DNA of 64,000 nucleotides from Squalus acanthias (Eukaryota), in NCBI GenBank assembly GCA_030390025.1, contig CM059431.1, forward strand, positions 119,476,001 through 119,540,000. Direction: 5' to 3'. Each line of letters starts with the position of its first letter. Position 1 is the stretch's first letter. The notes beneath the pieces are model-generated. The model did not search any database and was not told the DNA's origin. It saw only the letters and a list, made by a program, of their open reading frames with translations. Shown piece after piece: positions 6,693-47,426 of the stretch. The position numbers and the translations under genes are program-made.

Positions 6693-7752
6693 TAAGGGTT
6701 AACATATATGTTAGGAAAGGGTTAATCAGACTGTCCTAAAGTGTACTGAAGTTATATTGCTATTGATCTGTCTTTATATTGTAGCAATATTAACCTTTAG
6801 CCTTCATATGTTAAGCAGGAAGTATAATCAATGTAAGTAGTGACCACTGAGCTGTTGAACCAAGACTGACCCAACAGCAATGGTCAGTTTTATCACTTTA
6901 GTAAACTTAATTAAAGACATGCCATTGCATACTGGTTCCTAAAGTTGCAGAGAACCTTAATCATTTTATAATGAGTGTGTAAAACCGATTAGTTCTCCTA
7001 AACAAAAACATCTGGGTGTACATCATCCTTTTAAATTAGGGTTTATGTAGAATCAGGAGATTGACTGGTACTGAATGACACGGAATCAAAGTCAAATTTT
7101 TTGTCTTACAATACTCCTGTGCAGAGCCTTGGGCCGTTTTACTATGTTAAAAGTGCTATGTAAATATAAGTTGTTGTTGTTGTAAAAGAGTTATAGTGAT
7201 CTCGTTAGCCCAACGGAAAAAGAGCTTGCTAAGTAAGGAAATCTAAAATTATTTCTAAGGAACAAGATCATGAACTTCTTATATGGGGTTGTAGTTTAAC
7301 TTTTGTATAATCAAGTAATGTGTGGATTGTCACATAGAGGGGGTTAGAAACATATATAAAAAGTAGCAGTTTGTAATGGGTGTTTTGATTTGTAAAGGCC
7401 TGAGATACTGAGTTCAGAACTGTAACGTGTTTGAATCCCCAACCAAACCATCATCAGGTATAATCTTTCAGGTGCATATTTAAGTACTGCAAGTACGTTT
7501 TGCTTAATAAATCTATGAGACTTGACCTCAATGTTCAAGAACCTTATTGATCTGAGGAGTAAATAGAGCATCTAATGATAAATAAGATTGACCCTCTAAC
7601 TTAGAGGCCTAGATATTTGGTATCCCTCGAAAACGAGCACTGGGATAGCGATGAAATAGCAACCCGCCCTCATTCGGACAACTGTAGGCAGCACATAAAA
7701 TTTGTGCTGCCTGCTACTTTATGCGATTGTAGCGTTCAGACAAGTCTGCACC

Positions 7753-9353
7753 TGTAAGGGATTCTCTCCTGACCCTGCGTGTCTCGTAGCCTGTGAGATT
7801 CACGCGGCTCTGTGCAGCCTGTATGTCAGTGCGGGTCTAGGCCTGGTCTCCAGCCAGTCTGGGAACACTAGACACCCCTGTGAGTGGTTCGAATCACTCT
7901 CCCTTACGGTTCTAGACACTGGACTTAGATGCGAGAGCAGTAATGGAGATAAAACTCATGTAGACTTGGTTTGAACGGTACGAAATGGAAAATCTTTATT
8001 GCATGATACTTAAAATTATGAAATACATGTCATATGCACAGATTAATGACAGTACAATCTTACAAACAGTTATAATCACTCTTAGGGAAACGAGGAACGA
8101 CCAGCACAACGTAAATAGGGCACACATTACAAATATCCTTAATCTTTAAACCCTCCCCTATCAATGTCTATCCTAAACTAGCTTCGTAGGATCCCGAGAC
8201 TCATGCTCACCACTCGTAATAACTCGGAGAAATCCCGAATAGCTGATCGGATGTTTTTCACCGCAGCACCCACGTGTTGGTCAGGAGATCTCCTGGTCCC
8301 ACTTGTTTACTGCTTCTGCTGCTCGGTCAGTCGGCTGGACCGTCCGCTGTAGTGAAGACCTCTGTTGGTTGGATACAAGGTATGGTGGAGCACCGTTGTC
8401 AATATCGCTGATACGATGTGTTTGCACAGTCCAGTTATCGTCGATGCAATATGTCTTGTTAAAGAAGAAAACTTCCTGTCGAGAAGACTTGGCTGATCGA
8501 CCTACAGGCGCGGTCGGGATCTACTGACCGTGGCGATGGATAAGGTCTTCTTCTCTTCTCCTCTCATCTCATCTCATCTCATCTCATCTCATCCCGGGCC
8601 TTCGGTTCCGCTGCCAGCTACCAACATAGGTCTTTGCAACAGTCTTTTACACAGGAGCAGCCACGATGATAACAGCAACAAGCGGCAAGAGTCAAGAACA
8701 CGAGGCAAGAGCAAGAGCAAGAGGCCAGAGAGCGAATGGACGGTTTGGGGCCTGCAATTATAGTGCACAGTTCTTCCGTTTCCCGCCCAACTACAATGTC
8801 CATTCTTTTGTTTAAGGTTTGGCGCCCAAAATGTCCTGTATGGGTGATCTCTGTCCTTAATGGGTTTCGGGGCTACTCCTGAATGTTTGAGTACCTGTTA
8901 ATATTTCTCCCATTGTTAAATCGGTCGGTGTTCCCCCTGGAGGGGTTTGGGGCTTCCAAGTGTCCTGTATAACTACCTGCTAACGGCTCTCTCATCGTAG
9001 AGCCGTTGGGAGTTTACATATTAATGTCCTTTGGATGGGCCCTTGATGGCTTTCCTTTGTACCTGGGAGACCGATTCCAGTATCGATGTTTATACTGTAA
9101 ACCCATAATGTCCTGTGTATTGTCTTCACTGTGCTGAATCGTTATCGATCTTGCAAGAATGTTTATTGGAACGCCATCTTGTCTGCCTGCTGAAAAGTCT
9201 AGAATGTTCTGTCACGCGGTGCGGCGGCCATTTTACAGGCTGCTTGTGTCCAATTTAAACCTGACAGCATTCCGCTGAAATAAAAGCTGTTTTGAACGAA
9301 ACTTTGTGTTTTCTCCTTATTAAAATGAAATCGCGATAATTGCGAATTCTACA
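7753..9353 (-). repeat. 3' LTR of element A1
   Basis: Matches 15399-16999 at offset 7646, with no differences seen in spot checks. Contains a (CATCT)n microsatellite and a minus-strand AATAAA at ~7995-8000. Confidence 0.95.
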
Positions 9354-9365
9354 GTCCCTCCTGTT
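9354..9365 (-). promoter_or_regulatory. Polypurine tract of A1
   Basis: Minus-strand AACAGGAGGGAC lies immediately before the TGTAG start of the 3' LTR. Confidence 0.8.
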
Positions 9366-9777
9366 GATGCGAATAACTCCGCTTATCGTATCAAAAATCT
9401 CAGTGGTGAGCAATCTTATCTCGATTTCACTCCGAATCCAGTAAATTAATCCCATAAATTTTAACTTCACTAGGGTCTCTGTGTCGTCCTCATTTCCCAA
9501 GAAAAATCACATTTTATATCACCGTAGGCATCATTTGCCCTTAAACTTACACCACTTGTTTTCCTTCCCGGCGTAACCAGGCCGATACCTCACGCATCAC
9601 CTGTATATTTGTCTTTTATTCAAGGGAAGGAAAAACAAAACCCAAAAACCAAACAATCAACACCATCACCAAAATAAACAAATCCCGACTCTTAAACATG
9701 TCGAGTTTCCAACGTATTTACAATGAGTACAAACTTCCGCGGCGCACGTGGCGAGCAGGAGTGACGCCATTTTCCCA

Positions 9778-12129
9778 TTACACTGCGCTCTCATCGTACA
9801 CGCGCACGTAACGTTCTCGCCACTCTCCCGTGTTCTCATGCTTGGTGAGGCGCTTGTCTCTTTTACAATGTATGAACAAAAGGTATACTACAATAAACAC
9901 TTGACAGACGACTAAAATGTGGGAGGCTATTCTGACCCATGAGGGCACTTCAATATTCGTGAACAGATTCCACCACGGTGGAACCACTATGTCCAAAATG
10001 TCTGTACCTATCTCGACGGTTTTCTGTTCTAATGTATAGAAATGCTTTTGTGACACCGCGACGGCTTTCAGAAGTTTGGTTAAATGCTCGGGGAGAGGGG
10101 GAATGAGGTACCCAAAATGTGCGACAAATCGCTGCAAGTCGGTGAAATTCTCTTTTACTGTGAGATGAACAGTGGATGGTTCAGGGATTGGGATGATTCG
10201 TTGTTGTGCTACTTGAACTTCAGCCCTGGGTTTAAAACAGAAACTGCTGTCACTCACCGGACACCGGCTACGGTTTCCATGCTGGTAGTGTTGCGCTGCA
10301 GTGGTAACACAATATGTTCCACCCCCGATGTATGCTACCTGCGGAGGCACATGATCTTGTGCCATTGCCTCCATGGTGCAATTCATGGACTTGGCGCCAG
10401 CCGTTCTGAACCCGCACTGTGGTGTTAAAAAGGCATTCAAGTGCTGGGGGCACAGTATTATGTGTGCTCCCCTGCCACGACAACCAGAGAGATCTGTACC
10501 TGTCATCGTTTGCTCCCAGCGGATGACGTAAGGTGGAACCGCTGCATAACGAATGTGGGCTCCCCCCTGAATGACACCAATGTTCTCTACCCGATATACC
10601 GGGGCGGGCTTTGCTGTGTTGCCCAAAACCGGCATGCGTAATACTATTCCCATAATAGTATGGTTTGAACGTCCGCAGTCCACGGGGACTGGGTAAGCTT
10701 CTGAAGCTAGCCTGAGCTGGCACGGACTTAATGCGTTCTGAAAAGGGTGGAGCGCCCGCAGGTGTTTGTTACTTATCCAGGACGGGACCAAACCTTGTTT
10801 TAAATCCTCCAAATTACTGCGGCCCTCGCCCAGTAACCACGCCCCGTAAAGCACGCACACCTCGTTCTGCGCAGCTTGATCGGATGCATTCCGATCTTCC
10901 CTAATCAGGGCATTTACCGTACGCGCATGTTTCTCCAGCTCTGCTATGATTTCCTTTAAGTGTAGTGTCATGGCTTGGTCCTCGTGCAGACCTGACCCTA
11001 CCACTTTATTCTCGTCTGTAAGAATATCCTTTAACTGTGTTTTTAAACCATTAATCTGGGTCTGCAGCTCCACACTGTCTAGAGCGTTGACCACAGATGT
11101 CCCTGTATTAAAGGCAGTGAACGCATCGTTCACCAAACCCCTTCTTTGCCTCCCTACTTGGTCCAAAACTTCCTGCGGTGCGGTGTATAAACTTGTCTTA
11201 TCAATTTCTGCAAAATCAAACTCGTAAAATTGCCTGAACATCTTGGTCAACAGGACCTGGTACAACTGTTCCGTCTTTTTGGGGCACCACTCTGGTAACC
11301 GTACCTCAGTGAGATTTAAAATCACCGAGGCCACCGCGTAATGTACCCCCTGAAATAGTATCTGGTCTGTGGGGACCAGTACCAAACCGTTCCCGGGTCC
11401 CTTACTAGTTTTAGGGCACCCTTCTTCCTCAGTTAGAACTACCGGGATCGTGGGCGGGGCTTTGCGTGGGCGCGTAATGAGCTCAGTGGCATTTACTGGG
11501 ATCGGAGAGTATGGGGCTCCGCACCCCCTGGTGCTCGCATCCCACCTCATCCCCTGTCCGTTATCCTGCCACTGATTAATAAAGAATATGGAGATGCCTT
11601 TGGGGCAAACGTACTTTGACCCCCACATACAAACATAAATTCCCTCATCCGGTTCCCACCATTTGTCCCAACAGACTTTCACTTGTCCGTCTGTCCCCGT
11701 AATTGTCCGATGGGTATTATTACCCAGTCGCTCCCACTCAACCGAAGAGTTCCTCATAGTTTTGCTCAGCTTTCGCAGCCACCACCATCGGCTCAATGGG
11801 ACATTCCCACTGCAGGTCAAACAAATCATTTTGCCGACGGTGACGCTGATCCTGGGTGCGATGATCCGTACTTTGGGGCACATTAAAGAAGTCTCTTTGT
11901 AGGCGAACCCCGATGTGCTGGAATACTCCGTTGAGTTCGTTCCCAGCCATCCTGGCCACCTTCCCTTGTGGAAATAGGTGCTGGTCCCTTCTGCCTTCCG
12001 TCTCCCGGTCCCATCCACCGCGATGGGGGCCGTGTCCCCGGAACATCCAAACACCACGACATCCTTGGTGAGGCCCCGATAGGCCAATCCACATCCGATT
12101 GCCACGAGCAAAACTAGAAGTCGTTCCAT
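9778..12129 (-). CDS. env: Envelope glycoprotein, 783 aa: signal peptide, Ig-like domain, furin site, class I F-type fusion subunit, TM, cytoplasmic tail
   Basis: Hydrophobic N-terminus, CLTC...W...DEGIYVC, RQRR|GLVNDAFTAFNTGTSVV followed by heptad repeats, Cys-rich region, TM segment ILVVCQVFIVVYLLFI, many N-X-S/T sites. Confidence 0.9.
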   Translation of the reverse strand: MERLLVLLVAIGCGLAYRGLTKDVVVFGCSGDTAPIAVDGTGRRKAEGTSTYFHKGRWPGWLGTNSTEYSSTSGFAYKETSLMCPKVRIIAPRISVTVGKMICLTCSGNVPLSRWWWLRKLSKTMRNSSVEWERLGNNTHRTITGTDGQVKVCWDKWWEPDEGIYVCMWGSKYVCPKGISIFFINQWQDNGQGMRWDASTRGCGAPYSPIPVNATELITRPRKAPPTIPVVLTEEEGCPKTSKGPGNGLVLVPTDQILFQGVHYAVASVILNLTEVRLPEWCPKKTEQLYQVLLTKMFRQFYEFDFAEIDKTSLYTAPQEVLDQVGRQRRGLVNDAFTAFNTGTSVVNALDSVELQTQINGLKTQLKDILTDENKVVGSGLHEDQAMTLHLKEIIAELEKHARTVNALIREDRNASDQAAQNEVCVLYGAWLLGEGRSNLEDLKQGLVPSWISNKHLRALHPFQNALSPCQLRLASEAYPVPVDCGRSNHTIMGIVLRMPVLGNTAKPAPVYRVENIGVIQGGAHIRYAAVPPYVIRWEQTMTGTDLSGCRGRGAHIILCPQHLNAFLTPQCGFRTAGAKSMNCTMEAMAQDHVPPQVAYIGGGTYCVTTAAQHYQHGNRSRCPVSDSSFCFKPRAEVQVAQQRIIPIPEPSTVHLTVKENFTDLQRFVAHFGYLIPPLPEHLTKLLKAVAVSQKHFYTLEQKTVEIGTDILDIVVPPWWNLFTNIEVPSWVRIASHILVVCQVFIVVYLLFIHCKRDKRLTKHENTGEWRERYVRVYDESAV

Positions 12130-12421
12130 CCTTCCTTGGTTCCTGTGATCAGATAGAATGAGGTAGCCAGCCTCGCAAAAAGTCTCTGGCTTTTGTGAAG
12201 GGTGAGCGGGTCCCCTGACCTCGCCTCACGTAAACTTCAACGTTTGCTAAATAGACTTCCTCTAAACCTAGCCTTAAAACTCCCATCATTTTGTCGTTAT
12301 CTGTTAAAAACACTACAAACTTAACCTTATTAAAACTTAAAACTTAACCTTGAACTATAAACTTTAAAACTTAACCTTATACTAATACTTTACAATGCCG
12401 CCCGTTCTCAGGGCGGCCCCT

Positions 12422-13582
12422 TTAAATCCTGAGAAGGCTGCTGCGAGCTCTTCCCGACGGTGGGAGGGCACTGACCCTTCCCTCTGATCTGCCGCAGCCT
12501 GTTGCTGCGCTGACCCTTTCCTCTGATCTGCCGCAGCCTGTTACTGCTTCGATGTGGCCTGTCTCTACCCGGGTTATCTTAACCTGAAACTTACGCCCTG
12601 GGGCAGCCTGTGGACCTGACCACATCTTCCTGGGCTGGGGTACTCTGCTTGACCTACGGGGAATTGCTATGGGCGGGGGCTCCGTGACGGACGGACCGGG
12701 TCCCGAGACCTTCAACGGGATGACCTGGGGTTCCATCACAGACGCCAGCCCCGCCTCCGCTGACTCCGCCTCCCTAACCTCGGGGCTGGCAGTTCGGGGC
12801 CCCGCCCTGCTCGGCCCAGCAGGCGGCCCTTCACTCGTGAACTCTGCCTCCCCTGAGGACTGGACGTTCAAAGCGGGCGGCCACACCTCTGGGAACCACA
12901 TAGCGGCTGGCCCGGCCTCCTCTAGCTCCTTCCTCCTGCTGTCGGGACCTGCAGCTTGTGTGTCCACCCCGTATGGATCTCTACCTAGCGGCCCCAATCC
13001 TCCCAGACCGTTCCTCAGGAACCACCCGTCATCATCACTATGCTCATCTGCACTATCCTCATCTGACCAGGGTACCCTGGGGTCCTCGTCATCTAACCCC
13101 CAACTCCAGAAAAACGCTGCATGATCGTCCGGGATGTCCCTTCCCCTGATGCAAGCTGCTACGCCTGCCTGTGTGCCTTGTGGTCCTACCTGGGGCTGTG
13201 TTTTCCCACTCGCAGGTCTGGCCCCTCCCTTAAGACAGGCCACCGCCCCTGCTTGTTTCTGTGAAATCTCACCTGCTGGAGGCTGCAGATTTCTATCCTG
13301 TTTTAAAACCTCATGCTCCCGGCTTTTGGCTACCCTGTAGGCTGCTTTTATCTCTCTAAGCTGCCCTTCTAGCCTGAGCACGTCTAACTTTCCCATTGCT
13401 CGGGCGTTCTCCTCCCGCAGGGCCTGCTCTCTAAGCTGCCCTTCCAGCCCATCTATTTTCCCTATTAAGCGGGCGTTCTCCTCCCGCAAGGCCTGCTCTT
13501 TTAACCTGGCCTCCTCACCGCAGACCCCCTCCTGTGCGTGTCTTTTAAAAGGACACAGGTAGGCAGGCTGCGTGGGCTCTAG
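12422..13582 (-). CDS. ORF-X, unknown protein in frame with gag (probable readthrough extension)
   Basis: Open frame from the codon after the gag TGA to TAA at 12422, with no early ATG. Coiled-coil repeats, an acidic/Trp patch and a Pro-rich tail. Also intact in copy A2. Confidence 0.75.
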   Translation of the reverse strand, partial: LEPTQPAYLCPFKRHAQEGVCGEEARLKEQALREENARLIGKIDGLEGQLREQALREENARAMGKLDVLRLEGQLREIKAAYRVAKSREHEVLKQDRNLQPPAGEISQKQAGAVACLKGGARPASGKTQPQVGPQGTQAGVAACIRGRDIPDDHAAFFWSWGLDDEDPRVPWSDEDSADEHSDDDGWFLRNGLGGLGPLGRDPYGVDTQAAGPDSRRKELEEAGPAAMWFPEVWPPALNVQSSGEAEFTSEGPPAGPSRAGPRTASPEVREAESAEAGLASVMEPQVIPLKVSGPGPSVTEPPPIAIPRRSSRVPQPRKMWSGPQAAPGRKFQVKITRVETGHIEAVTGCGRSEERVSAATGCGRSEGRVSALPPSGRARSSLLRI

Positions 13583-15394
13583 TCATTGGGTACTATTAGA
13601 CGGTCCTGCGGCACCTACGGGGCCGGTTGCGACCGCCACCTGTCCACGCGCATTCAAAACCATCTTGCGCATGACTCCTAACACTGCTTCGAGGTCTTCG
13701 GGAGAGGTGGGTGCCTTTGCTTCCTTAGCCGGGACAGGCGCCTGGGTTCGGACCGCGGGATTTTTATCCTTGGAATCCTTCCAAGGGTTCCTGCAGTGCT
13801 TGCGCCAGTGCCCTGTCTTCCCACACCCGTAACAGGCATTACTTGCCTGTGGGGCGCGATTACCCTCCTGATGCCACTCTCTTTGAGTCGGGGCTGCGGG
13901 TCGTACCTCATGTACTCTTCCCTTAAAGGGACGTGTCGTCATACCCCTTATGTTACGGTAACCTAACGTGAGTCGATTCAAGACCGACTCTTCCGTAAGG
14001 TTGAGGTCATTGGGATCGAACCAGGCTTTTGCCTGCTCTCTAACGGCTGGTAAACTGTTGGCTATTATGCACCTAAGCCAATGAATTAAAGCGGCGCCTT
14101 CCACATCTTCGCGTTCGGGCGCACCTAGACAGCTGCGCTCATATACTGGCCACAGCCTGTCGGCAAAAACCTTCGGGGGTTCTCCCTCCATCTGCACTGT
14201 CTGTCCCACTCTAGCAAACGGACCTCCGTCGTTCGCTCCCACTACTTCTAGGACCTCATTTTTCAATTCCTCATAACTTTTATTACCCCTCTTGCTATCG
14301 CCTGAGAGACACTGAAGGACCGAGCTGTCTAATGAGAACAGCAGCATTTTTGCTGTCTCCCCATCATCGCAGCCGTTAATGGCTGCGGCTTGCTCAACTT
14401 CCCTGAAATGTACGGAAGGGTCGTCTATCTCGGTCAGCTTCCTTACGTGGTTTATCATGGCCCTCAGCTGATGTGAACTGTGAGGCAACACCAGCTGTCC
14501 GAGGAGATCCCCCGGTTCTTCCCCACCGTTTCTGCTTGGGCCCCTTTTAATCCCCGTTACTGGATACAACAATCCCTTTTCTACCTCCTTTTCAACGGGC
14601 TCTTTTGCTTCTTCCGTTGCTTCCTCCCTAACCCAGGTTTCTGAATAGCTGGGTGGCGCGGAGGGCGCACTGGCTACTACTTCTTCTGCTTTACTTGGTG
14701 GGGAATTTCTAAATCTCTCATTTACTAGCGGCTGGCGTGCCGACGGATTAATAAGGCACACCATGCCGTTCGCATTATTCACGGCCCTTTTGAGGCTCTC
14801 TATCTCTTTTTCGCAGGCGCTATGGTCGGCTCCCTGAAACTTATCCTCAAGGGCCAACTTATACGCCGACCTAACCCCCATTAAGCTCTCTTCTTGAGTT
14901 CTTATCTGGGCAGCTTGACGGTTACATCTTTCCTTCATCCTACTCTCGTTTAATTTTGCTTCAGTGATCTGGCACTCGAGATACTCTACCCTTGTTTTAA
15001 GGTAACTGGAGACTTCCTGGCTTTCCTGGCGTAACTCATTTAAACTCTTAATGAGCGCCTCCCCTCCAGAAACCTTCTCCTCCATTTCCTCCTCTAGATG
15101 CTTGATTCGAGCGGTTAGCGCTGTATTGGTCTGGTTTGAAATCTGAACCTGCCTTTTGTAGCACATAAGCCAGACTGCTTTCTCAACTGCCTTTTTATGC
15201 TCCTTACTATCCGTCCACCTTTCAGCTGCCTCTAGTGGGCTCTTATCCGCTAACAATTCGCTTATCCACTTTTTCGTTAGATTAACCTTTCCAAATACGT
15301 AATCCGCTATCTTTTCCTGCATCACATTTCGTACAGTCATTCCAAAATCTAACACACTACCCTCTCGCTGCCAGTGTCCTGCCGCGGTCGCCAT
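13583..15394 (-). CDS. gag: Gag, 603 aa, with coiled coil, PSAPPSY late domain, capsid-like region and CCHC zinc knuckle
   Basis: CYGCGKTGHWRKHC fits C-X2-C-X4-H-X4-C. It is the first ORF after the 5' LTR/PBS. Confidence 0.9.
   Translation of the reverse strand: MATAAGHWQREGSVLDFGMTVRNVMQEKIADYVFGKVNLTKKWISELLADKSPLEAAERWTDSKEHKKAVEKAVWLMCYKRQVQISNQTNTALTARIKHLEEEMEEKVSGGEALIKSLNELRQESQEVSSYLKTRVEYLECQITEAKLNESRMKERCNRQAAQIRTQEESLMGVRSAYKLALEDKFQGADHSACEKEIESLKRAVNNANGMVCLINPSARQPLVNERFRNSPPSKAEEVVASAPSAPPSYSETWVREEATEEAKEPVEKEVEKGLLYPVTGIKRGPSRNGGEEPGDLLGQLVLPHSSHQLRAMINHVRKLTEIDDPSVHFREVEQAAAINGCDDGETAKMLLFSLDSSVLQCLSGDSKRGNKSYEELKNEVLEVVGANDGGPFARVGQTVQMEGEPPKVFADRLWPVYERSCLGAPEREDVEGAALIHWLRCIIANSLPAVREQAKAWFDPNDLNLTEESVLNRLTLGYRNIRGMTTRPFKGRVHEVRPAAPTQREWHQEGNRAPQASNACYGCGKTGHWRKHCRNPWKDSKDKNPAVRTQAPVPAKEAKAPTSPEDLEAVLGVMRKMVLNARGQVAVATGPVGAAGPSNSTQ
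15376..15393 (-). promoter_or_regulatory. Primer-binding site of A1 (tRNA-Ser-like, tentative)
   Basis: TGGCGACCGCGGCAGGAC lies 5 nt after the LTR end. The TGGCG...GCAGGA pattern resembles tRNA-Ser PBSs. Confidence 0.65.
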
Positions 15395-15398
15395 TTTC

Positions 15399-16999
15399 TG
15401 TAAGGGATTCTCTCCTGACCCTGCGTGTCTCGTAGCCTGTGAGATTCACGCGGCTCTGTGCAGCCTGTATGTCAGTGCGGGTCTAGGCCTGGTCTCCAGC
15501 CAGTCTGGGAACACTAGACACCCCTGTGAGTGGTTCGAATCACTCTCCCTTACGGTTCTAGACACTGGACTTAGATGCGAGAGCAGTAATGGAGATAAAA
15601 CTCATGTAGACTTGGTTTGAACGGTACGAAATGGAAAATCTTTATTGCATGATACTTAAAATTATGAAATACATGTCATATGCACAGATTAATGACAGTA
15701 CAATCTTACAAACAGTTATAATCACTCTTAGGGAAACGAGGAACGACCAGCACAACGTAAATAGGGCACACATTACAAATATCCTTAATCTTTAAACCCT
15801 CCCCTATCAATGTCTATCCTAAACTAGCTTCGTAGGATCCCGAGACTCATGCTCACCACTCGTAATAACTCGGAGAAATCCCGAATAGCTGATCGGATGT
15901 TTTTCACCGCAGCACCCACGTGTTGGTCAGGAGATCTCCTGGTCCCACTTGTTTACTGCTTCTGCTGCTCGGTCAGTCGGCTGGACCGTCCGCTGTAGTG
16001 AAGACCTCTGTTGGTTGGATACAAGGTATGGTGGAGCACCGTTGTCAATATCGCTGATACGATGTGTTTGCACAGTCCAGTTATCGTCGATGCAATATGT
16101 CTTGTTAAAGAAGAAAACTTCCTGTCGAGAAGACTTGGCTGATCGACCTACAGGCGCGGTCGGGATCTACTGACCGTGGCGATGGATAAGGTCTTCTTCT
16201 CTTCTCCTCTCATCTCATCTCATCTCATCTCATCTCATCCCGGGCCTTCGGTTCCGCTGCCAGCTACCAACATAGGTCTTTGCAACAGTCTTTTACACAG
16301 GAGCAGCCACGATGATAACAGCAACAAGCGGCAAGAGTCAAGAACACGAGGCAAGAGCAAGAGCAAGAGGCCAGAGAGCGAATGGACGGTTTGGGGCCTG
16401 CAATTATAGTGCACAGTTCTTCCGTTTCCCGCCCAACTACAATGTCCATTCTTTTGTTTAAGGTTTGGCGCCCAAAATGTCCTGTATGGGTGATCTCTGT
16501 CCTTAATGGGTTTCGGGGCTACTCCTGAATGTTTGAGTACCTGTTAATATTTCTCCCATTGTTAAATCGGTCGGTGTTCCCCCTGGAGGGGTTTGGGGCT
16601 TCCAAGTGTCCTGTATAACTACCTGCTAACGGCTCTCTCATCGTAGAGCCGTTGGGAGTTTACATATTAATGTCCTTTGGATGGGCCCTTGATGGCTTTC
16701 CTTTGTACCTGGGAGACCGATTCCAGTATCGATGTTTATACTGTAAACCCATAATGTCCTGTGTATTGTCTTCACTGTGCTGAATCGTTATCGATCTTGC
16801 AAGAATGTTTATTGGAACGCCATCTTGTCTGCCTGCTGAAAAGTCTAGAATGTTCTGTCACGCGGTGCGGCGGCCATTTTACAGGCTGCTTGTGTCCAAT
16901 TTAAACCTGACAGCATTCCGCTGAAATAAAAGCTGTTTTGAACGAAACTTTGTGTTTTCTCCTTATTAAAATGAAATCGCGATAATTGCGAATTCTACA
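15399..16999 (-). repeat. 5' LTR of element A1
   Basis: Direct repeat of 7753-9353. On the minus strand it reads TGTAGAATTC...CCCTTACA. Confidence 0.95.
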
Positions 17000-17087
17000 G
17001 ACCTCTTGAAAGGGGAGGTGCTTTCTGCCTGCAACAGGTGCTGGAACTGCTTGTGGAGGCAAGTGTTGTAAAGAAGAAGACTGAGTA

Positions 17088-38074: not shown

Positions 38075-39722
38075 TGTAGAATTCGCAATATATCGCGATT
38101 TTATTAATAAGGAGAAAACACAAAGTTTCGTTCAAACAGCTTTTATTTCAGCAGAATGCTGGCAGGTTTAAAGTGGACACAAGCAGCCTGTAAAATGGCC
38201 GCCGCACCTCGTGACAGAACATTCTAGACTTTTCAACAGGCAGACAAGATGGCGTTCCAATAAACATTTGTGCAAGGTCGATTAAGATTCAGCACAGTGA
38301 AGATAATACACGAGACATTATGGGTTTGCAGTATACACATAGATACTGAAATCGGTCTCCCAGGTACAAAGGAAAGCCATTGTACCGAGTAATCAAGGGC
38401 CCATCCAAAAGACATTAATATGTAAAATCCCAACGACTCTACGATGAGAGAGCCGTTAGCAGGTAGTTATACAGGACACTTGGAAGCCCCAAACCCCTCC
38501 AGGGAGAACATCGACCGATTTAACAATGGGAGAAATATTAACAGGTACTCAGACATTTACGAGTAGCCCCGAAACCCATTAAGAACGGAGATCACCCATA
38601 CAAGACATTTGGGCGCCAAACCCTAAACAAAAGAATGGACATTATAGTTGGGCGGGAAACAGAAGATTTTGCACTATAATTGCAGGCTCCAAACCGTCCA
38701 TTCTCTCTCTTGCTCCTGTGTTTTTATCCGGTCGATTCGTAACCTCGTGGCTGCTCCTGTGTACTCGTAGTTGGGCTTCTGCTTGCCTGTTGCCTCTTCT
38801 GAAAAGACTGTTGAACTTTCTGATCCGTTCGGATCTACCTCGTGTCGCGTAACGAAGACCTATGTTGGTAACTGGCAGCGGAACCGAAGGCCCGAGATGA
38901 GATGAGATGAGATGAGATGAGATGAGAAGAGAGGAAGACCATATCCATCGCCACGGTCAGTAAATCCCGACCGCGCCTGTAGGTCGATTAGCCAAGTTTT
39001 CCTCGCCAGGAAGACTTCTCTTGAACTTGCAAGGAAACATATCGTAGCGACGATATCGATAACTGTGCTCGAAGAGTACCTGTTAAGCCAACCAACACAG
39101 GTCTTTCATCACAGCAGACGGTCCAGCCTGCTAGCCGGAGCAGCAGAAGCAAGTAAACAAGTGGGACCAGGAGATCTCCTGACCGACACGTGGGTGCTGC
39201 GGTGAAAAACATCCGATCAGCTATTCGGAATTTCTCCGAGTTATCACGAGTGGTGAGCATGAGTCTCGAGATCCTACGAATCTAGTTTAGGATAGATATT
39301 GATAGGGGAGGGTTTAAGGATTAAGGATATTTGTAATGTGTGCCCCTATTTACTTTGTGCCGTTCGTTCCTCGTTTCCCTAAGATCGACTATATAACTGT
39401 TTGTAAGATTGTACTGTCATTAATCTGTGCTTATGACATGTATTTCATAATCTTAAGTATCATGCAATAAAGATTTTCCATTTCGTACCATTCAAACCAA
39501 GTCTACATGAGTTTTATCTCCATTACTGCTCTCGCATCTAAGTCCAGTGTCTAGAACCGTAAGGGAGAGTGATTCGAACCACTCACAGGTGTGTCTAGTG
39601 TTCCCAGACTGGCTGGAGACCAGAACAGGCAACAAGGCCTAGACCCGCACTGACATACAGGCTGCACAGAGCCGCGTGAATCTCACAGGCTGCGAGACAC
39701 GCAGGGTCAGGAATCCCTGACA
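38075..39722 (+). repeat. 5' LTR of A2
   Basis: TGTAGAATTC...CCCTGACA. TATA-like TATAAT at ~38675, (GAGAT)n, AATAAA at ~39466. Confidence 0.95.
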
Positions 39723-39726
39723 GAAA

Positions 39727-41538
39727 ATGGCGACCGCGGCAGGACACTGGCAGCGAGAGGGTAGTGTGTTAGATTTTGGAATGACTGTACGAAATGTTAT
39801 GCAGGAAAAGATAGCGGATTATGTGTTTGGAAAGGTTAATCTAACTAAGAAATGGATAAGTGAATTGTTAGCGGATAAGAGCCCACTAGAGGCAGCTGAA
39901 AGGTGGACGGATAGTAAAGAACATAGAAAGACACTTGAGAAAGCAGTCTGGCTTATGTGTTATAAAAGGCAGGTTCAGATTTCAAACCAGACCATTACAG
40001 CGCTAGTAGCTCGAATCAGTCATTTAGAGGGAGAAATGGAGGAGAAGGTTTCTGGAGGGGAGGTGCTCATTAAGAATTTAAATGAGTTACACCAAGAAAG
40101 CCAGGAAGTCTCCAGTCACCTTAAAACAAGGATAGATTATCTCGAGTGCCAGGTCACTGAGGCAAAATTGAATGAGAGCAGGTTAAAGGAAAGATGTAAC
40201 CGCCAAGCTGCCCAGATAAGAACTCAAGAAGAGAGCTTAATGGGGGTTAGGGCGGCATATAAGTTGGCCCTTGAGGATAAGTTTCAGGGAGCCGATCATA
40301 GCGCCTGCCAAAGGGAGATAAAGCACCTCAAAAAGGCCGTGAACAATGCGAACGGCATGGTGTGCCTTATCAATCCGTCGGCGCACCAGCCGCTAGTAAA
40401 TGAGAGATTTAGAAAATCCCCACCAAGTAAAGCAGAAGAAGTAGTAGCCACTGCGCCCTCCGCGCCACCCAGCTATTCAGAAACCTGGGTTAGGGAGGAA
40501 GCAATGGAAGAAACAAAAGAGCCCATTGAAAAGGAAGTAGAAAAGGGATCGTTGTATCCAGTAACGGGTATTAAAAGGGGCCCAAGCAGAAACGGTGGGG
40601 AAGAACCGGGGGATCTCCTCGGACAGCTGGTGTTGCCTCACAGTTCACATCAGCTGAGAGCTATGATAAATCACGTACGGAAGCTGACCGAGGCAGACGA
40701 CCCTTCCGTACATTTCAGAGAAGTTGAGCAAGCCGCAGCCATTAACGGCTGCGATGATGGGGAGACAGCAAAAATGCTGCTGTTCTCATTAGACAGCTCG
40801 GTCCTTCAGTGTCTCTCAGGCGAGAGCAAGAGGGGAACCAAGAGTTATGAGGAATTAAAGAATGAGGTCCTGGAAGTGTTGGGGGCGAACGACGAAGGTC
40901 CGTTTGCTAGAGTGGGACAGACAGTGCAGATGGAGGGAGAACCCCCGAAGGTTTTTGCCGACAGGCTGTGGCCAGTATATGAGCGCAGCTGTCTAGGTGC
41001 GCCCGAGCGCGAAGATGTGGAAGGTTTAGCTTTAACTCATTGGCTTAGGTGCATAATAGCCAACAGTTTACCAGCCGTTAGAGAGCAGGCAAAAGCATGG
41101 TTTGATCCCAATGACCCCAACATTACGGAAGAGTCGGTCTTGAATCGACTCACGTTAGGTTATCGCAATATAAGGGGTATGGCAACACGTCCCCTTAAGG
41201 GAAGAGTACATGAGGTACGACCCGCAGCCCCGTATCAAAGAGAGTGGCATCAGGAGGGTAATCGCGCCCCACAGGCAAGTAATGCTTGTTACGGGTGTGG
41301 GAAGACAGGGCACTGGCGCAAGCATTGCAGGAACCCTTGGAAGGATTCCAAGGATAAAAATCCCGCGGTCCGAGCCCAGGCGCCTGTCCCGGCTAAGGAA
41401 GCCAAGGCACCCACCCCTCCTGACGAACTCGAAGTAGTGTTAGGAGCCATGCGCAAGCTGGTCTTGAATGCGCGTGGACAGGTGGCGGTCGCAACCGGCC
41501 CCGTAGGTGCCGCAGGACCGTCTAATAGTACCCAATGA
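39727..41538 (+). CDS. gag: Gag, 603 aa
   Basis: About 92% identical to A1 Gag (47 differences counted by eye). CCHC knuckle and PSAPPSY present. Confidence 0.9.
   Translation: MATAAGHWQREGSVLDFGMTVRNVMQEKIADYVFGKVNLTKKWISELLADKSPLEAAERWTDSKEHRKTLEKAVWLMCYKRQVQISNQTITALVARISHLEGEMEEKVSGGEVLIKNLNELHQESQEVSSHLKTRIDYLECQVTEAKLNESRLKERCNRQAAQIRTQEESLMGVRAAYKLALEDKFQGADHSACQREIKHLKKAVNNANGMVCLINPSAHQPLVNERFRKSPPSKAEEVVATAPSAPPSYSETWVREEAMEETKEPIEKEVEKGSLYPVTGIKRGPSRNGGEEPGDLLGQLVLPHSSHQLRAMINHVRKLTEADDPSVHFREVEQAAAINGCDDGETAKMLLFSLDSSVLQCLSGESKRGTKSYEELKNEVLEVLGANDEGPFARVGQTVQMEGEPPKVFADRLWPVYERSCLGAPEREDVEGLALTHWLRCIIANSLPAVREQAKAWFDPNDPNITEESVLNRLTLGYRNIRGMATRPLKGRVHEVRPAAPYQREWHQEGNRAPQASNACYGCGKTGHWRKHCRNPWKDSKDKNPAVRAQAPVPAKEAKAPTPPDELEVVLGAMRKLVLNARGQVAVATGPVGAAGPSNSTQ
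39728..39745 (+). promoter_or_regulatory. Primer-binding site of A2
   Basis: TGGCGACCGCGGCAGGAC, identical to A1 and overlapping the first gag ATG. Confidence 0.65.
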
Positions 41539-42687
41539 CTAGAGCCCACGCAGCCTGCCTACCTGTGTCTTTTTAAAAGACACGCACAGGAGGGGGTCTG
41601 CGGTGAGGAGGCCAGGTTAAAAGAGCAGGCCTTGCGGGAGGAGAACGCCCGCTTAATAGGGAAAATAGATGGGCTGGAAGGGCAGCTTAGAGAGCAGACC
41701 CTGCGGGAGGAGAACGCCCGATCAATGGGAAAGTTGGACGTGCTCAGGCTAGAAGAGCAGCTTAGAGAGATAAAAGCAGCCTACAGGGTAGCCAAAAGCC
41801 GGGAGTATGAGGATGTAAACCAATGCAAACTGTACCAGCCAGGTGCGCAGGGGAAAACTACAGGGGTAAATCCCGCCAATGGGAAAGCACAGCCCCAGGT
41901 AGGACCACAAGGCACACAGGCAGGCATAGCAGCTTGCATCAGGGGAAGGGACATCCCGGACGATCATGCAGCGTTTTTCTGGAATTGGGGGTTAGATGAG
42001 GAAGAATTCAGGGTACCCTGGTCAGATGAGGATAGTGCAGATGAGCATAGTGATGATGACGGGTGGTTCCTGAGGAACGGTCTGGAGGGAATGGGGGCTG
42101 TAGGTAGAGATCCACACAGGGTGGACACACAAGCTGCAGGTCCCGAGGACAGGAGGGAGGAGCTAGAGGAGGCAGGGCCAGCCGCTATGGGAGCACAGAG
42201 AGTACCGGTGTGGCTCCCAGCGATGTGGCCACCCACTTTGAACGTCCAGTCCTCAGGGGAGGCAGAGATCACGAGTGAAGGGCCGCCTGCTGGGCTGAGC
42301 AGGGCGGAGCCACGAACTGCCAGCCCCGAGGTTAGGGAGGCGGAGTCAGCGGAGGCGGAGCCGGCGACTGTGATGGAACCCCAGGTCACCCCGATGGAGG
42401 TCTCGGAACCCGGTCCGTCCGTCACGGAACCCCCGCCCATAGCAACTCCCCGTAGGTCAAGTAGAGAACCCCAGCCCAGGAGGATGTGGTCATGTCCCCA
42501 GACTGCCCCAAGGCGTAAATTTAAGGTTAAGATAACCCAGGTACAGACCGGCCACATCGCAGCAGTAACAGGCTGCGGCAGATCAGAGGGAAGGGTCAGC
42601 GCAGCAACAGGCTGCGGCAGATCAGAGGGAAGGGTCAGTGCCCTCCCACCGTCGGGAAGAGCTCGCAGCAGCCTTCTCAGAATTTAA
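41539..42687 (+). CDS. ORF-X, in-frame continuation of gag after TGA
   Basis: CAA TGA CTA GAG... stays open to TAA at 42687. Homologous to A1 ORF-X. Confidence 0.75.
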   Translation, partial: LEPTQPAYLCLFKRHAQEGVCGEEARLKEQALREENARLIGKIDGLEGQLREQTLREENARSMGKLDVLRLEEQLREIKAAYRVAKSREYEDVNQCKLYQPGAQGKTTGVNPANGKAQPQVGPQGTQAGIAACIRGRDIPDDHAAFFWNWGLDEEEFRVPWSDEDSADEHSDDDGWFLRNGLEGMGAVGRDPHRVDTQAAGPEDRREELEEAGPAAMGAQRVPVWLPAMWPPTLNVQSSGEAEITSEGPPAGLSRAEPRTASPEVREAESAEAEPATVMEPQVTPMEVSEPGPSVTEPPPIATPRRSSREPQPRRMWSCPQTAPRRKFKVKITQVQTGHIAAVTGCGRSEGRVSAATGCGRSEGRVSALPPSGRARSSLLRI

Positions 42688-42975
42688 AGGGGCCGCCCTG
42701 AGAACGGGCGGCACTGTAAAGTTATAGTTTTAAGTTTTAAGTTAATAGTTCAAGGTTAAGTTTATAGTTTTTTTAATAAGGTTAAGTTTGTAGTGTTTTT
42801 AACAGAAAACGATAAAATGATGGGAGTTTTAAAGATAGGTTTAGTTGAAGTTTATTCAGCGAACGTTGAAGTTTACGTGAGGCGAGGTCAGGGGACCCGC
42901 TCACCCTTCACAAAAGCCAGAGACTCTTGCGAGGCTGGCTACCTCATTCTATCTGATCACAGGAACCAAGGAAGG

Positions 42976-45327
42976 ATGGAACGAATTCTAGTATTGCTCG
43001 TGGCAATCGGATGTGGATTGGCCTATCGAGGCCGCACCAAGGATGTCGTGGTGTTTGGATGTTCCGGGGACACGGCCCCCATCGCGGTGGATGGGACCGG
43101 AAGACGGGAGGCAGAGGAGACCAGCACCTATTTCCACAAGGGAAGGTGGCCAGGATGGCTGGGAACGAACTCAACGGAGTATTCCAGCACGTCGGGGTTT
43201 GCCTACAAAGAGACTTCTTTACTGTGCCCCAAAGTAAGGATCATCGCACCCAGGATCAGCGTCACCGTCGGCAAACGGATTTGTTTGACTTGTAGTGGGA
43301 AGGTCCCATTGAGCCGATGGTGGTGGCTGCGAAAGCTGAGCAAAACTATGAGAAACTCTTCGGTCGAGTGGGAACGACTGGGTAATAATACCCATCGGAC
43401 AATTACGGGGACAGACGGACAAGTGAAAGTCTGTTGGGACAAATGGTGGGAACCGGATGAGGGAATTTATGTATGTATGTGGGGGTCAAAGTACGTTTGC
43501 CCCAAAGGCATCTCCATATTTTTTATTAATCAATGGCAGGATAACGGACAGGGGATGAGGTGGGATGCGAGCACCAGGGGGTGCGGAGCCCCATTCTCCC
43601 CGATCCCAGTAAATGCCACTGAGCTCATTACGCGCCCACGCAAAGCCCCGCCCACGATTCCGGTGGTTCTAGCTGAGGAAGAAGGGTGCCCTAAAACTAG
43701 TAAGGGACCCGGGAATGGTTTGGTACTGGTCCCCACAGACCAGATACTATTTCAGGGGGTACATTACGCGGTGGCCTCGGTGATTTTAAATCTCACTGAG
43801 GTACGGTTACCAGAGTGGTGCCCCAAAAAGACGGAACAGTTGTACCAGGTCCTGTTGACCAAGATGTTCAGACAATTTTACGAATTCGATTTCGCGGAAA
43901 TTGATAAAACAAGTTTGTACACCGCGCCACAGGAAGTTTTGGATCAAGTAGGGAGGCAAAGAAGGGGTTTGGTGAACGATGCGTTCACTGCTTTTAACAC
44001 AGGTACATCTGTGGTCAACGCTCTAGACAGTGTGGAGCTGCAGACCCAGATTAATGGTTTAAAGACACAATTAAAGGACATTCTAACAGATGAGAATAAA
44101 GTGGTAGGGTCGGGTCTACACGAGGACCAAGCCATGACCCTCCATTTAAAGGAAATTATAGCAGAGTTGGAGAAACATGCAAAGACGGTAAATGCCCTGA
44201 TTAGGGAAGATCGGAATGCATCCGATCAAGCTGCGCAGAACGAGGTGTGCGTGCTTTACGGGGCGTGGTTACTGGGCGAGGGCCGCAGTAATTTGGAGGA
44301 TTTAAAACAAGGTTTGGTTCCGTCCTGGATAAGTAACAAACACCTACGGGCGCTCCACCCTTTTCAGAACGCATTAAGCCCGTGCCAGCTCAGGCTAGCT
44401 TCAGAAGCATACCCAGTCCCCGTGGACTGCGGACGATCAAACCATACTATTATGGGAATAGTATTACGTATGCCGGTTTTGGGCGACACAGCAAAGCCCG
44501 CCCCGGTATATCGGGTAGAGAACATCGGTGTCATTCAGGGGGGAGCCCACATTCGTTATGCAGCGGTTCCACCTTACGTCATCCGCTGGGAGCAAACGAT
44601 GACAGGTACAGATCTCTCTGGTTGTCGTGGCAGGGGAGCACACATAATACTGTGCCCCCAGCACTTGAATGCCTTTTTAACACCACAGTGCGGGTTCAGA
44701 ACGGCTGGCGCCAAGTCCATGAATTGCACCATGGAGGCAATGGCACAAGATCATGTGCCTCCGCAGGTAGCATACATCGGGGGTGGAACATATTGTGTTA
44801 CCACTGCAGCGCAACACTACCAGCATGGAAACCGTAGCCGGTGTCCGGTGAGTGACAGCAGTTTCTGTTTTAAACCCAGGGCGGAAGTTCAAGTAGCACA
44901 ACAGCGAATTATCCCAATCCCTGAACCATCCACTGTTCATCTCACAGTAAAAGAGAATTTCACCGACTTGCAGCGATTCGTCGCGCATTTTGGATACCTC
45001 ATTCCCCCTCTCCCTGAACACCTCACCAAGCTTTTAAAAGCCGTCGCGGTGTCACAGAAACATTTTTATACATTAGAGCAGAAAACTGTCGAAATAGGAA
45101 CAGACATTCTGGTTATAGTAGTTCCACCGTGGTGGAATCTGTTCACTAATATTGAAGTGCCTTCATGGATCAGAATAGCCTCCCACATTTTAGTCGTATG
45201 CCAAGTTTTCATTGTAGTGTACCTATTGGTCGTACATTGTAAAAGAGACAAACGCCTCACCAAGCATGAAAACACGGGAGAGTGGCGAGAACGTTACGTG
45301 CGCGTGCACGATGAAAGCACCGTGTAA
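42976..45327 (+). CDS. env: Envelope glycoprotein, 783 aa (Ig-like + F-type fusion protein)
   Basis: About 98% identical to A1 Env (17 differences counted by eye). The ATG at 42976 follows the acceptor-like CTGATCACAG|G. Confidence 0.9.
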   Translation: MERILVLLVAIGCGLAYRGRTKDVVVFGCSGDTAPIAVDGTGRREAEETSTYFHKGRWPGWLGTNSTEYSSTSGFAYKETSLLCPKVRIIAPRISVTVGKRICLTCSGKVPLSRWWWLRKLSKTMRNSSVEWERLGNNTHRTITGTDGQVKVCWDKWWEPDEGIYVCMWGSKYVCPKGISIFFINQWQDNGQGMRWDASTRGCGAPFSPIPVNATELITRPRKAPPTIPVVLAEEEGCPKTSKGPGNGLVLVPTDQILFQGVHYAVASVILNLTEVRLPEWCPKKTEQLYQVLLTKMFRQFYEFDFAEIDKTSLYTAPQEVLDQVGRQRRGLVNDAFTAFNTGTSVVNALDSVELQTQINGLKTQLKDILTDENKVVGSGLHEDQAMTLHLKEIIAELEKHAKTVNALIREDRNASDQAAQNEVCVLYGAWLLGEGRSNLEDLKQGLVPSWISNKHLRALHPFQNALSPCQLRLASEAYPVPVDCGRSNHTIMGIVLRMPVLGDTAKPAPVYRVENIGVIQGGAHIRYAAVPPYVIRWEQTMTGTDLSGCRGRGAHIILCPQHLNAFLTPQCGFRTAGAKSMNCTMEAMAQDHVPPQVAYIGGGTYCVTTAAQHYQHGNRSRCPVSDSSFCFKPRAEVQVAQQRIIPIPEPSTVHLTVKENFTDLQRFVAHFGYLIPPLPEHLTKLLKAVAVSQKHFYTLEQKTVEIGTDILVIVVPPWWNLFTNIEVPSWIRIASHILVVCQVFIVVYLLVVHCKRDKRLTKHENTGEWRERYVRVHDESTV

Positions 45328-45766
45328 TCGGAAAATGGCGTCACTCCCGCTCGCCGCGTGCGCCGCGGAAGTTTGTACTCATATAAGATTTTCAGAGATT
45401 GTAAATACGTTGGGAACTCGACATGTTTTCAGAGTTGGTGTTGATTTATTTTGGTGATGGTGTTACAGTTAAAAATGATTGTTTGGTTTTGGGTTTTGTT
45501 TCTCCTTTCCCTGAATAAAAGATGAATATACAGGTGATACGAGAGGCATCGGCCTGGTTACGCCGGGAAGGAAAACAAGTGGTGTAAGTTTAAGGGCAAA
45601 TAATGCCTACGGTGATATAAAATGTAATCTTCTTGGGAAATGAGGACGACACAGAGACCCTAGCTAAGTTAAAATTATGGGATTAATTTACTGGATTCGG
45701 AGAGAAATCGAGATAATATTGCTCACCATTATGATTTTTGATACGATAAGCGGAGTTATTCGCATC

Positions 45767-45778
45767 AACAGGAGGGAC
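45767..45778 (+). promoter_or_regulatory. Polypurine tract of A2
   Basis: AACAGGAGGGAC lies directly before the 3' LTR. Confidence 0.8.
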
Positions 45779-47426
45779 TGTAGAATTCGCAATATATCGC
45801 GATTTTATTAATAAGGAGAAAACACAAAGTTTCGTTCAAACAGCTTTTATTTCAGCAGAATGCTGGCAGGTTTAAAGTGGACACAAGCAGCCTGTAAAAT
45901 GGCCGCCGCACCTCGTGACAGAACATTCTAGACTTTTCAACAGGCAGACAAGATGGCGTTCCAATAAACATTTGTGCAAGGTCGATTAAGATTCAGCACA
46001 GTGAAGATAATACACGAGACATTATGGGTTTGCAGTATACACATAGATACTGAAATCGGTCTCCCAGGTACAAAGGAAAGCCATTGTACCGAGTAATCAA
46101 GGGCCCATCCAAAAGACATTAATATGTAAAATCCCAACGACTCTACGATGAGAGAGCCGTTAGCAGGTAGTTATACAGGACACTTGGAAGCCCCAAACCC
46201 CTCCAGGGAGAACACCGACCGATTTAACAATGGGAGAAATATTAACAGGTACTCAGACATTTACGAGTAGCCCCGAAACCCATTAAGAACGGAGATCACC
46301 CATACAAGACATTTGGGCGCCAAACCCTAAACAAAAGAATGGACATTATAGTTGGGCGGGAAACGGAAGATTTTGCACTATAATTGCAGGCTCCAAACCG
46401 TCCATTCTCTCTCTTGCTCCTGTGTTTTTATCCGGTCGATTCGTAACCTCGTGGCTGCTCCTGTGTACTCGTAGTTGGGCTTCTGCTTGCCTGTTGCCTC
46501 TTCTGAAAAGACTGTTGAACTTTCTGATCCGTTCGGATCTACCTCGTGTCGCGTAACGAAGACCTATGTTGGTAACTGGCAGCGGAACCGAAGGCCCGAG
46601 ATGAGATGAGATGAGATGAGATGAGATGAGAAGAGAGGAAGACCATATCCATCGCCACGGTCAGTAAATCCCGACCGCGCCTGTAGGTCGATTAGCCAAG
46701 TTTTCCTCGCCAGGAAGACTTCTCTTGAACTTGCAAGGAAACATATCGTAGCGACGATATCGATAACTGTGCTCGAAGAGTACCTGTTAAGCCAACCAAC
46801 ACAGGTCTTTCATCACAGCAGACGGTCCAGCCTGCTAGCCGGAGCAGCAGAAGCAAGTAAACAAGTGGGACCAGGAGATCTCCTGACCGACACGTGGGTG
46901 CTGCGGTGAAAAACATCCGATCAGCTATTCGGAATTTCTCCGAGTTATCACGAGTGGTGAGCATGAGTCTCGAGATCCTACGAATCTAGTTTAGGATAGA
47001 TATTGATAGGGGAGGGTTTAAGGATTAAGGATATTTGTAATGTGTGCCCCTATTTACTTTGTGCCGTTCGTTCCTCGTTTCCCTAAGATCGACTATATAA
47101 CTGCTTGTAAGATTGTACTGTCATTAATCTGTGCTTATGACATGTATTTCATAATCTTAAGTATCATGCAATAAAGATTTTCCATTTCGTACCATTCAAA
47201 CCAAGTCTACATGAGTTTTATCTCCATTACTGCTCTCGCATCTAAGTCCAGTGTCTAGAACCGTAAGGGAGAGTGATTCGAACCACTCACAGGTGTGTCT
47301 AGTGTTCCCAGACTGGCTGGAGACCAGAACAGGCAACAAGGCCTAGACCCGCACTGACATACAGGCTGCACAGAGCCGCGTGAATCTCACAGGCTGCGAG
47401 ACACGCAGGGTCAGGAATCCCTTACA
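45779..47426 (+). repeat. 3' LTR of A2
   Basis: Repeat of 38075-39722 at offset 7704, with at least 4 substitutions seen. Confidence 0.95.

Follow-up and report, generated by a model that had tools for sequence, protein, structure and literature searches.

Is a long open reading frame (ORF) that begins directly behind the gag stop codon of a provirus without pol a product of stop-codon readthrough, and where did such a frame come from? The question is raised by a long terminal repeat (LTR) element of Squalus acanthias that occurs twice in a 64,000-nt stretch of contig CM059431.1 (GCA_030390025.1, forward-strand positions 119,476,001 to 119,540,000), called the window hereafter and numbered from its first letter. 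Copy A lies on the minus strand and copy B on the plus strand, and their interiors are 91-95% identical. Each copy carries the same junction and three long frames, namely gag, the frame behind the gag stop (ORF-X) and env; reverse transcriptase (RT) is absent from the frames of both. We propose, with a probability of roughly 70%, that the junction is the gag-pro readthrough site of a gamma/epsilon-like group of endogenous retroviruses (ERVs), surviving unchanged in a derivative that has lost pol and kept gag and env.

In copy B the proposed readthrough codon is the UGA at 41536..41538 (plus strand), within the sequence ...ACC CAA TGA CTA GAG.... Frame 0 then remains open for 382 codons, to 42687. 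The junction of copy A is identical (stop 13585-13583, minus strand) and is followed by 386 open codons. A preliminary description of this DNA had noted a gag ending CAA-TGA-CTA-G in both copies, the same frame open for about 380 further codons and the lack of an early ATG in ORF-X; all of this holds, the first ATG of ORF-X being codon 63 in both copies. The open frame of ORF-X is not a composition effect: in copy B, frame 0 has no stop against 21-23 in the other two plus-strand frames, and 0 of 5000 dinucleotide shuffles of ORF-X are open. When 87 random substitutions, the distance between A and B, are introduced, ORF-X stays open in only 128-174 of 5000 trials (~3%), and the indels that separate the two copies net to multiples of three (33 and 21 nt). 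For the host, 14 sequencing runs are listed, 8 of them guessed to be RNA, and contigs of 4 of the latter kind were compared with 39000-45900. Some contigs bridge the stop (e.g. 40913-41755) without a reported GT..AG joint; these are repeat-family contigs that may be DNA and are uninformative on expression, levels or splicing. Frameshifting need not be invoked at the end of gag, since gag and ORF-X share a frame.

Elsewhere in the same genome, the same stop stands in front of an intact pol. At locus L074 an unbroken 1443-aa frame starts directly behind the UGA and contains RVP, RVT_1, RNase_H, Integrase_H2C2, rve and SH3 domains, so that protease, RT, a pair of RNase H-type domains, integrase and an SH3-like domain are all represented. 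The gag tail of the window followed by TGA-CTAG and, within 70-100 nt, by D-T-G-A has 358 exact genome matches (control, 0); with these matches and L074, an autonomous helper of the same family is present in the genome. A second family was found by searching this genome with a distant Gag homologue, P0002. A zf-CCHC domain is detected in its Gag, and 29 of 30 loci read gag, UGA-CU(A/G)(G/A) and then a protease motif, the stop context being UGA-CUAG at 19 loci, UGA-CUGG at 9 and UGA-CUGA at 1. The motif LEPAQPVHLC... after the family-2 stop leads into the protease active site, and the frames behind the stop hold RVT_1, RNase H and integrase domains. Family 3 (L065, L067) has UGA-CUAA ahead of the protease. 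Among solved structures, the RTs of murine leukaemia virus (MLV) and XMRV are nearest to the RT of these relatives (E ~1e-60).

The relatives therefore show the layout of a gag-pro readthrough junction, with one stop after the nucleocapsid (NC) zinc knuckle and with DTGA and pol in frame behind it; in the window element just 12 protease codons and the Pol tail remain of that layout. The question posed in the preliminary description, whether autonomous relatives use the same junction for pol, can thus be answered in the affirmative, as protease and pol lie in frame behind the same UGA-CU context. Judged from these sequences, what the window element has inherited is most probably the gag-pro readthrough site of an ERV group of gamma/epsilon-like type. 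Because a single in-frame UGA parts NC from protease-RT-RNase H-integrase, Pol of the autonomous relatives would be obtainable only as a Gag-Pro-Pol readthrough product, an argument from gene layout like that made for MLV and WDSV.

The family-2 loci hold two further features. L063 is a second kind of pol-deleted element, in which one 547-aa frame runs from the UGA to the normal end of Pol and comprises a protease with DTGA, a shortened remainder and two different tandem copies of the Pol tail. In addition, a 129-136-aa frame (TSASCIS...) of ~390 nt lies inside the Pol tail in another frame at L061-L064; it is present in 4/4 family-2 loci, which are closely related, and may mean nothing.

ORF-X itself had been described as non-Pol, and this was not borne out: it is an in-frame mosaic of a protease start, a gag-derived coiled coil and a Pol C-terminal tail. 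Codons 1-12 (41539..41574, plus strand) are the retained protease N-terminus, in which 8 of 10 residues equal the start of the L074 Pro-Pol frame; in families 2 and 3 this protease-start motif stands ahead of DTGA. Codons ~20-92 (41596..41814, plus strand) form a coiled coil of two diverged 25-codon units. Its derivation from gag is traced through the longer version at L066, which aligns with residues 140-217 of the window Gag (E 5e-13), because the window segment alone gives no significant match to its own Gag (E 1.7); against L068, this same window segment shows 86% nucleotide identity. Codons 93-382 and the stop (41815..42687, plus strand) correspond by homology with L074 to the Pol C-terminal tail, past the SH3-like domain of integrase. 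Here the match is strong, with 56% identity between ORF-X codons 81-316 and L074 Pol residues 1205-1443 (E 4e-67), and weaker to the family-2 Pol of L062 (E 9e-13). A search of ORF-X against 1.84 billion representatives returned a single match, P0003, which is a Pol-tail fragment. All three pieces are joined in frame, and by these homologies ORF-X is a pol remnant mosaic, not a foreign or new gene. The element has the features of a non-autonomous provirus, with LTRs at both ends, RT and integrase deleted internally, and gag and pol pieces in one frame save for the UGA.

Two further loci bear on recombination. L066 is a recombinant in which the gag body is that of family 3, the gag tail is like that of family 2 and the ORF-X module is of the window type. 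It belongs with L068 to a sister lineage without pol; the gag body of this lineage agrees with family 3 and its gag tail resembles that of family 2. Recombination breakpoints cluster at the conserved gag-pro junction.

The window element is abundant and young in its genome. In a search of the 3.7-Gb genome with the junction, all 40 scored matches were 99-100% identical, from 3279 first-look candidates, and the exact 43-nt junction has 663 genomic copies. When any codon was allowed at the stop position there were 766 matches, and the first 100 listed comprise 98 TGA, 1 TAA and 1 AGA. Loss of CTAG in other young copies had been named as a reason to doubt readthrough; it was looked for, and TGA-CTAG is kept in 30/30 fetched young copies. 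UGA is present in all five related lineages. The tetranucleotide behind it fares differently: UGA-CUAG stands in the window family, in line with the context first described, whereas CUAG is not conserved between lineages, which read CUAG, CUGG, CUAA or CUGA. What is constant is the UGA, C and U at +4 and +5, and purines at +6 and +7; within the 8-nt spacer of copy B, CUAGAGCC (41539..41546, plus strand, CUAG context included), only C, U, purine, purine are constant across lineages. From ~10 nt past the stop a stretch of 21 nt is nearly invariant. Among cellular genes, AQP4, LDHB and MDH1 have the UGA-CUAG readthrough context.

Downstream of the spacer, copy B can form an extended stem-loop (41547..41605, core 41549-41602, plus strand), the first pair lying ~8-10 nt past the stop. 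The fold of 41548-41603 has an energy of -26.8 kcal/mol (z -3.9, 0/200 shuffles as stable), that of 41539-41610 has z -3.0 (0/200 shuffles), and the hairpin of copy A has z -2.6 (2/200 shuffles). The extended hairpin that had been noted about 8 nt past the stop is thus a stable fold at the right distance, although two of its five helices, CCTG/CAGG and GTGTC/GACAC, compete for the same G; in the minimum-energy fold a 7-bp apical stem, CCUGUGU/GCACAGG, replaces both of these overlapping helices. An Rfam scan of 38000-47500 gave nothing at the junction; its six matches were sub-threshold and fell within the LTRs.

The protease-bearing relatives have a candidate compact H-type pseudoknot instead, in which alignment columns 13-18 pair with 28-33 (stem 1) and columns 23-27 with 79-83 (stem 2). 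The alignment holds 23 sequences from four lineages only, and so few independent events. Across it, 97.5% of 276 cells pair, as against 32-65% for slid partners, in a structure derived from the same sequences. Candidate stem 2 pairs in 100% of cells, and its 3′ arm lies within the conserved protease motif. Two-sided changes occur at one pair in each candidate stem among these four lineages; the one in stem 1 is at the outer pair, columns 12 and 34, which is unpaired in 7/23 sequences and excluded from the 6-bp stem. Nested folds of the autonomous relatives are no better than shuffles (z -0.5 to +0.8), a score that cannot be applied to pseudoknots. In the window element a remnant of stem 1 persists at 41548..41568 (41548-41553 with 41563-41568, plus strand; columns 13-18 with 28-33), the deletion breakpoint lies ~39 nt past the UGA and the partner of stem 2 has been removed. 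The new downstream sequence pairs with the region of both arms, giving the extended stem-loop.

On this basis we suggest the following course of events. The window element would have lost pol almost wholly through in-frame deletion and recombination. Most ribosomes would terminate at the UGA and yield Gag; a few per cent may decode it by a near-cognate tRNA, an event that the C at +4 (in this element the complete CUAG) and the stem-loop 8 nt further on would favour. The predicted product is a Gag-deltaPol fusion of ~986 aa consisting of Gag, 12 protease residues, a second coiled coil and a disordered Pol tail. RT, protease and integrase would be supplied in trans by the autonomous partner. Because env and gag are strongly conserved, the element may spread via particles of its own Gag and Env. 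From the sequence context we infer readthrough at the window UGA, and a Gag-deltaPol fusion made in this way is likely. The preliminary description had envisaged a Gag-X fusion of ~990 aa in the place of Gag-Pol; readthrough is indeed the simplest route to translation of ORF-X, at a junction shared with pol-bearing relatives, although X turns out to be a Pol remnant.

Several observations weigh against this reading. Between A and B, ORF-X as a whole is near neutral, with a ratio of nonsynonymous to synonymous rates (dN/dS) of 0.97 (p 0.50), compared with 0.26 for gag and 0.06 for env (20 nonsynonymous and 88 synonymous differences; 42973-45327 against 12225-9778 on the minus strand). For polymorphisms shared among 30 young copies the corresponding ratio (pN/pS) is 0.58 in ORF-X and 0.20 in gag. 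ORF-X is truncated in 7/30 young copies, whereas the longer gag part is broken in 2/30 (per-codon excess p 0.024), and a truncation point common to L005 and L008 makes the spread of a truncated form probable. The lineages recombine often, so that open frames could owe their state to renewal from translated pol copies and not to selection on the spot. At the level of RNA, the sister pol-less L066 and L068 lack the lower stem of the hairpin and retain the apical one (61-nt segment, z -0.9 to -1.5), no compensatory changes or covariation support the hairpin in the comparison of the window family with L066/L068, and the ancestral stimulator, if it was one, is broken in the window element because the deletion took the 3′ arm of stem 2.

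Other parts of the record point the opposite way, and the evidence for selection on ORF-X is mixed. The coiled-coil module has a dN/dS of 0.38 between the window and L068 (binomial p 0.009), the lowest of the three frames. The Pol tail gives 0.93 between ORF-X and autonomous L074, with 15 unique residue changes in each relative to the outgroup; since the tail is near-neutral even inside the Pol of L074, the neutral rate of ORF-X is no argument against its translation. Family-2 tails allow no selection test, as those of L062 and L063 are nearly identical where alignable. The normal end of ORF-X is reached in 23/30 young copies, in length classes of 369, 382, 395, 408 and 434 codons that arise largely because the copy number of a 39-nt tandem repeat changes (42562..42638, plus strand, inside ORF-X, 2.0 units, 97% match; copy number also varies among genomic copies). 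A separate in-frame length variant is seen at 41819-41880, where contigs from all four sequencing runs skip 60 nt and where A and B also differ by indels.

The simplest alternative is that the arrangement is a pure vestige, the UGA being merely the terminator of Gag with background or irrelevant readthrough, and ORF-X being open as a recent cut-out of coding sequence refreshed by recombination. The neutral ratio between A and B, the truncated copies with one truncation common to two of them, and the deleted stem-2 partner of the relatives all fit this account, as do the youth of the insertions (LTR differences of 5/1650 and 2/1607) and the frequent template switching evident from the mosaic structure and the recombinant gag tails. 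Set against it are the 87 substitutions and several indels between A and B that brought neither stop nor net frameshift, an outcome expected in ~3% of trials, the constraint on the coiled-coil module and the fact that the neutral rate of the tail equals that of a bona fide Pol tail. The new 3′ sequence also provides a stable stem-loop at the right distance, and a UGA-C context by itself is leaky in vertebrate cells, according both to excerpts of a review (PMC13517186) and to established knowledge. We consider the vestige unlikely, though well worth keeping in mind, and favour the surviving readthrough junction.

The opposite possibility is that the product, or translation itself, is selected. 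Gag-X might act in cis through an extra coiled coil and co-assembly with helper Gag-Pol, or readthrough ribosomes might protect the genomic RNA from nonsense-mediated decay (NMD). In that event the deltaPol frame would be kept open because translating through it matters and not its residues, as expected of an NMD shield set by frame length or of a cis-acting Gag-X, and the pseudoknot would have been exchanged for a stem-loop on the same 5′ arm that keeps the stop leaky. The frame has indeed stayed open through substitutions and rearrangements while residues vary freely, and the independently rearranged L063 likewise keeps a single frame between the UGA and the end of Pol. Exact-pattern counts are higher for the pol-less than for the autonomous type (663 against 358, although the two patterns differ), and the fusion protein of the mouse intracisternal A-particle (IAP) element I-delta-1 acts in cis, as stated in excerpts of PMC6466679. 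By such precedent a use for the fusion protein is conceivable; a strict need for it is argued against because truncated ORF-X copies are frequent, at least one of them having seemingly spread. Moreover, ~2.6 kb of env and U3 beyond the ORF-X stop limits an NMD shield, and passive inheritance gives the same pattern. We regard selection for the product or its translation as quite doubtful.

A further possibility is separate expression of ORF-X, through either splicing of its mRNA or internal initiation at the codon-63 ATG, which has A at -3 and G at +4 in both copies. That methionine, however, belongs to a repeated coiled-coil unit. Upstream of it lie 62 open codons, the stretch of ORF-X with the highest conservation (A and B show 8 differences over 282 nt). 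In every lineage the frame continues that of gag, and there is no mark of a splice acceptor. Separate expression is accordingly a very improbable source of the ORF-X product.

Among known systems, excerpts of a 2026 review (PMC13517186) list as retroviral junctions UAG-GGA for gammaretroviruses, UAG-GAU for WDSV and UAG-GGC for SnRV, and, with UGA, UGA-AGA for SSSV, UGA-CGA for ZFERV and UGA-AGU for the toad ERV RMEV. In the same excerpts UGA-CUA is listed for alphaviruses and a dicistrovirus, not for retroviruses, UGA followed by CUA and a 3′ stem-loop is given as a readthrough context of animal viruses, and gag-pro readthrough is described as measured only for gammaretroviruses, the fish and frog retroviruses being assigned by layout alone. 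Like Moloney MLV (UAG-GGA, 8-nt spacer, H-type pseudoknot), the present group has a single in-frame stop between the NC zinc knuckle and protease DTGA. Its spacer of 8-9 nt, the 4-bp target duplication, an RT in the relatives nearest to MLV and XMRV, and the candidate H-type pseudoknot of the relatives are further points of likeness to gammaretroviruses. It differs from them in having UGA and not UAG, followed by CUA or CUG and not by the purine-rich GGAGGU, and in the window element pol is missing after the stop and a plain stem-loop replaces the pseudoknot. The epsilon-like fish and frog retroviruses SSSV, ZFERV and RMEV share the UGA stop, a class I-like affiliation, lower vertebrate hosts and readthrough that is deduced from layout, yet the hexanucleotides found here, UGA-CUA or UGA-CUG, are not among the retroviral ones in the excerpts of PMC13517186.

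The closest mechanistic resemblance of the window element is to the alphavirus nsP3/nsP4 junction and to cellular type II signals, which combine UGA-CUA(G) with an extended stem-loop from ~8-16 nt. Of the type II signal (UGA-CUA or UGA-CGG with a 3′ extended stem-loop), the UGA-CUA(G) context is present in the window family, and the sister lineages read CUG-G, CUA-A and CUG-A. These systems concern another virus family and another gene, without homology, and the stem here is without covariation support. As a non-autonomous element, the window provirus is comparable to IAP I-delta-1 (excerpts of PMC6466679), which likewise has an internal deletion and an in-frame gag-pol fusion frame, needs trans-acting helper proteins and has fared better than the autonomous element from which it arose. 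In I-delta-1, however, the fusion is one continuous frame; in the window provirus a stop intervenes and the fusion would be made in minor amounts, and env is kept and strongly conserved.

What is new here is a predicted case of retroviral readthrough in which the stop context is type II-like and a hairpin has naturally taken the place of a candidate pseudoknot, in a pol-deleted satellite ERV. A full-text literature search on ERV stop readthrough led only to the 2026 review and a general review of recoding, a narrow basis for calling the UGA-CUA context new for retroviruses. The family is large and very young, with at least 663 pol-less and at least 358 protease-bearing junctions by exact-pattern counts, and unites the UGA-CUAG context of cellular genes and alphaviruses with a candidate compact pseudoknot. 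Its natural variant, in which the second pseudoknot stem is deleted and a stem-loop stands instead, offers a ready-made pair for asking how context and structure combine. For annotation, the locus is a caution: where a provirus lacks pol, a long frame behind its gag stop may be a remnant pieced together from pol and need not be a new accessory gene.

The anatomy of the two proviruses is otherwise regular. Copy B is bounded by a 5′ LTR at 38075..39722 and its partner 3′ LTR at 45779..47426 (both plus strand; TG...CA ends; repeat family D3), which differ by 5 mismatches in 1650 positions, and is flanked by the 4-bp target duplication GTGA. Its gag (39727..41535, plus strand) encodes 603 aa with an N-terminal coiled coil, a capsid-like region and a CCHC zinc knuckle, and its env (42973..45327, plus strand) is an open frame of 784 aa beginning MERILV.... 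Copy A occupies 7751..17003 on the minus strand, with LTRs at ~7751-9357 and 15397-17003 (2 mismatches in 1607 nt), gag at 15394-13586, the UGA at 13583..13585 followed by the same CUAG and hairpin (~13575-13514), ORF-X at 12422..13582 (386 codons plus stop, with the net in-frame indels of 33 and 21 nt relative to copy B) and the end of env at 9778. Because the LTR pairs differ at so few positions, both insertions are very young. The gag ATG lies just 4 nt past the LTR end (39723-39747) and overlaps an 18-nt stretch that starts with TGG and resembles a primer-binding site (PBS); gag thus follows the LTR without a leader, and its first codons would coincide with the PBS.

Pfam searches with Gag, ORF-X and Env of the window gave sub-threshold matches only. 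The Gag homologues P0001 (50% identity) and P0002 (43%) have the same end point as the window Gag, and no protein with Gag homology longer than the window Gag was found, in a search that is itself weak evidence. P0001 and P0004-P0006 come from the skate Rhinoraja longicauda, where several genes for them carry the annotation 'uncharacterized protein', and these skate homologues terminate at the same residue position. Env begins with a signal-like sequence, carries an RQRR site with a heptad-like stretch behind it, and has a hydrophobic C-terminal anchor; it has a sequence match in neither Pfam nor the PDB (chains at E up to 1). Membership of the lokiretroviruses, whose Env resembles the paramyxovirus fusion glycoprotein F0 (PF00523) according to excerpts of PMC7947760, was considered and rejected: by sequence comparison, Env has no PF00523 match at E up to 0.1 and no PDB chain at E up to 1, and the RT is nearest to gammaretroviral ones. 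Outside the two proviruses, a long array with a 23-25-nt period occupies 52400-55000 (family D1, for which the listing gives 102 overlapping copies of a reference of 300 nt), and further dispersed repeats lie at 27833, 35886 and 48471.

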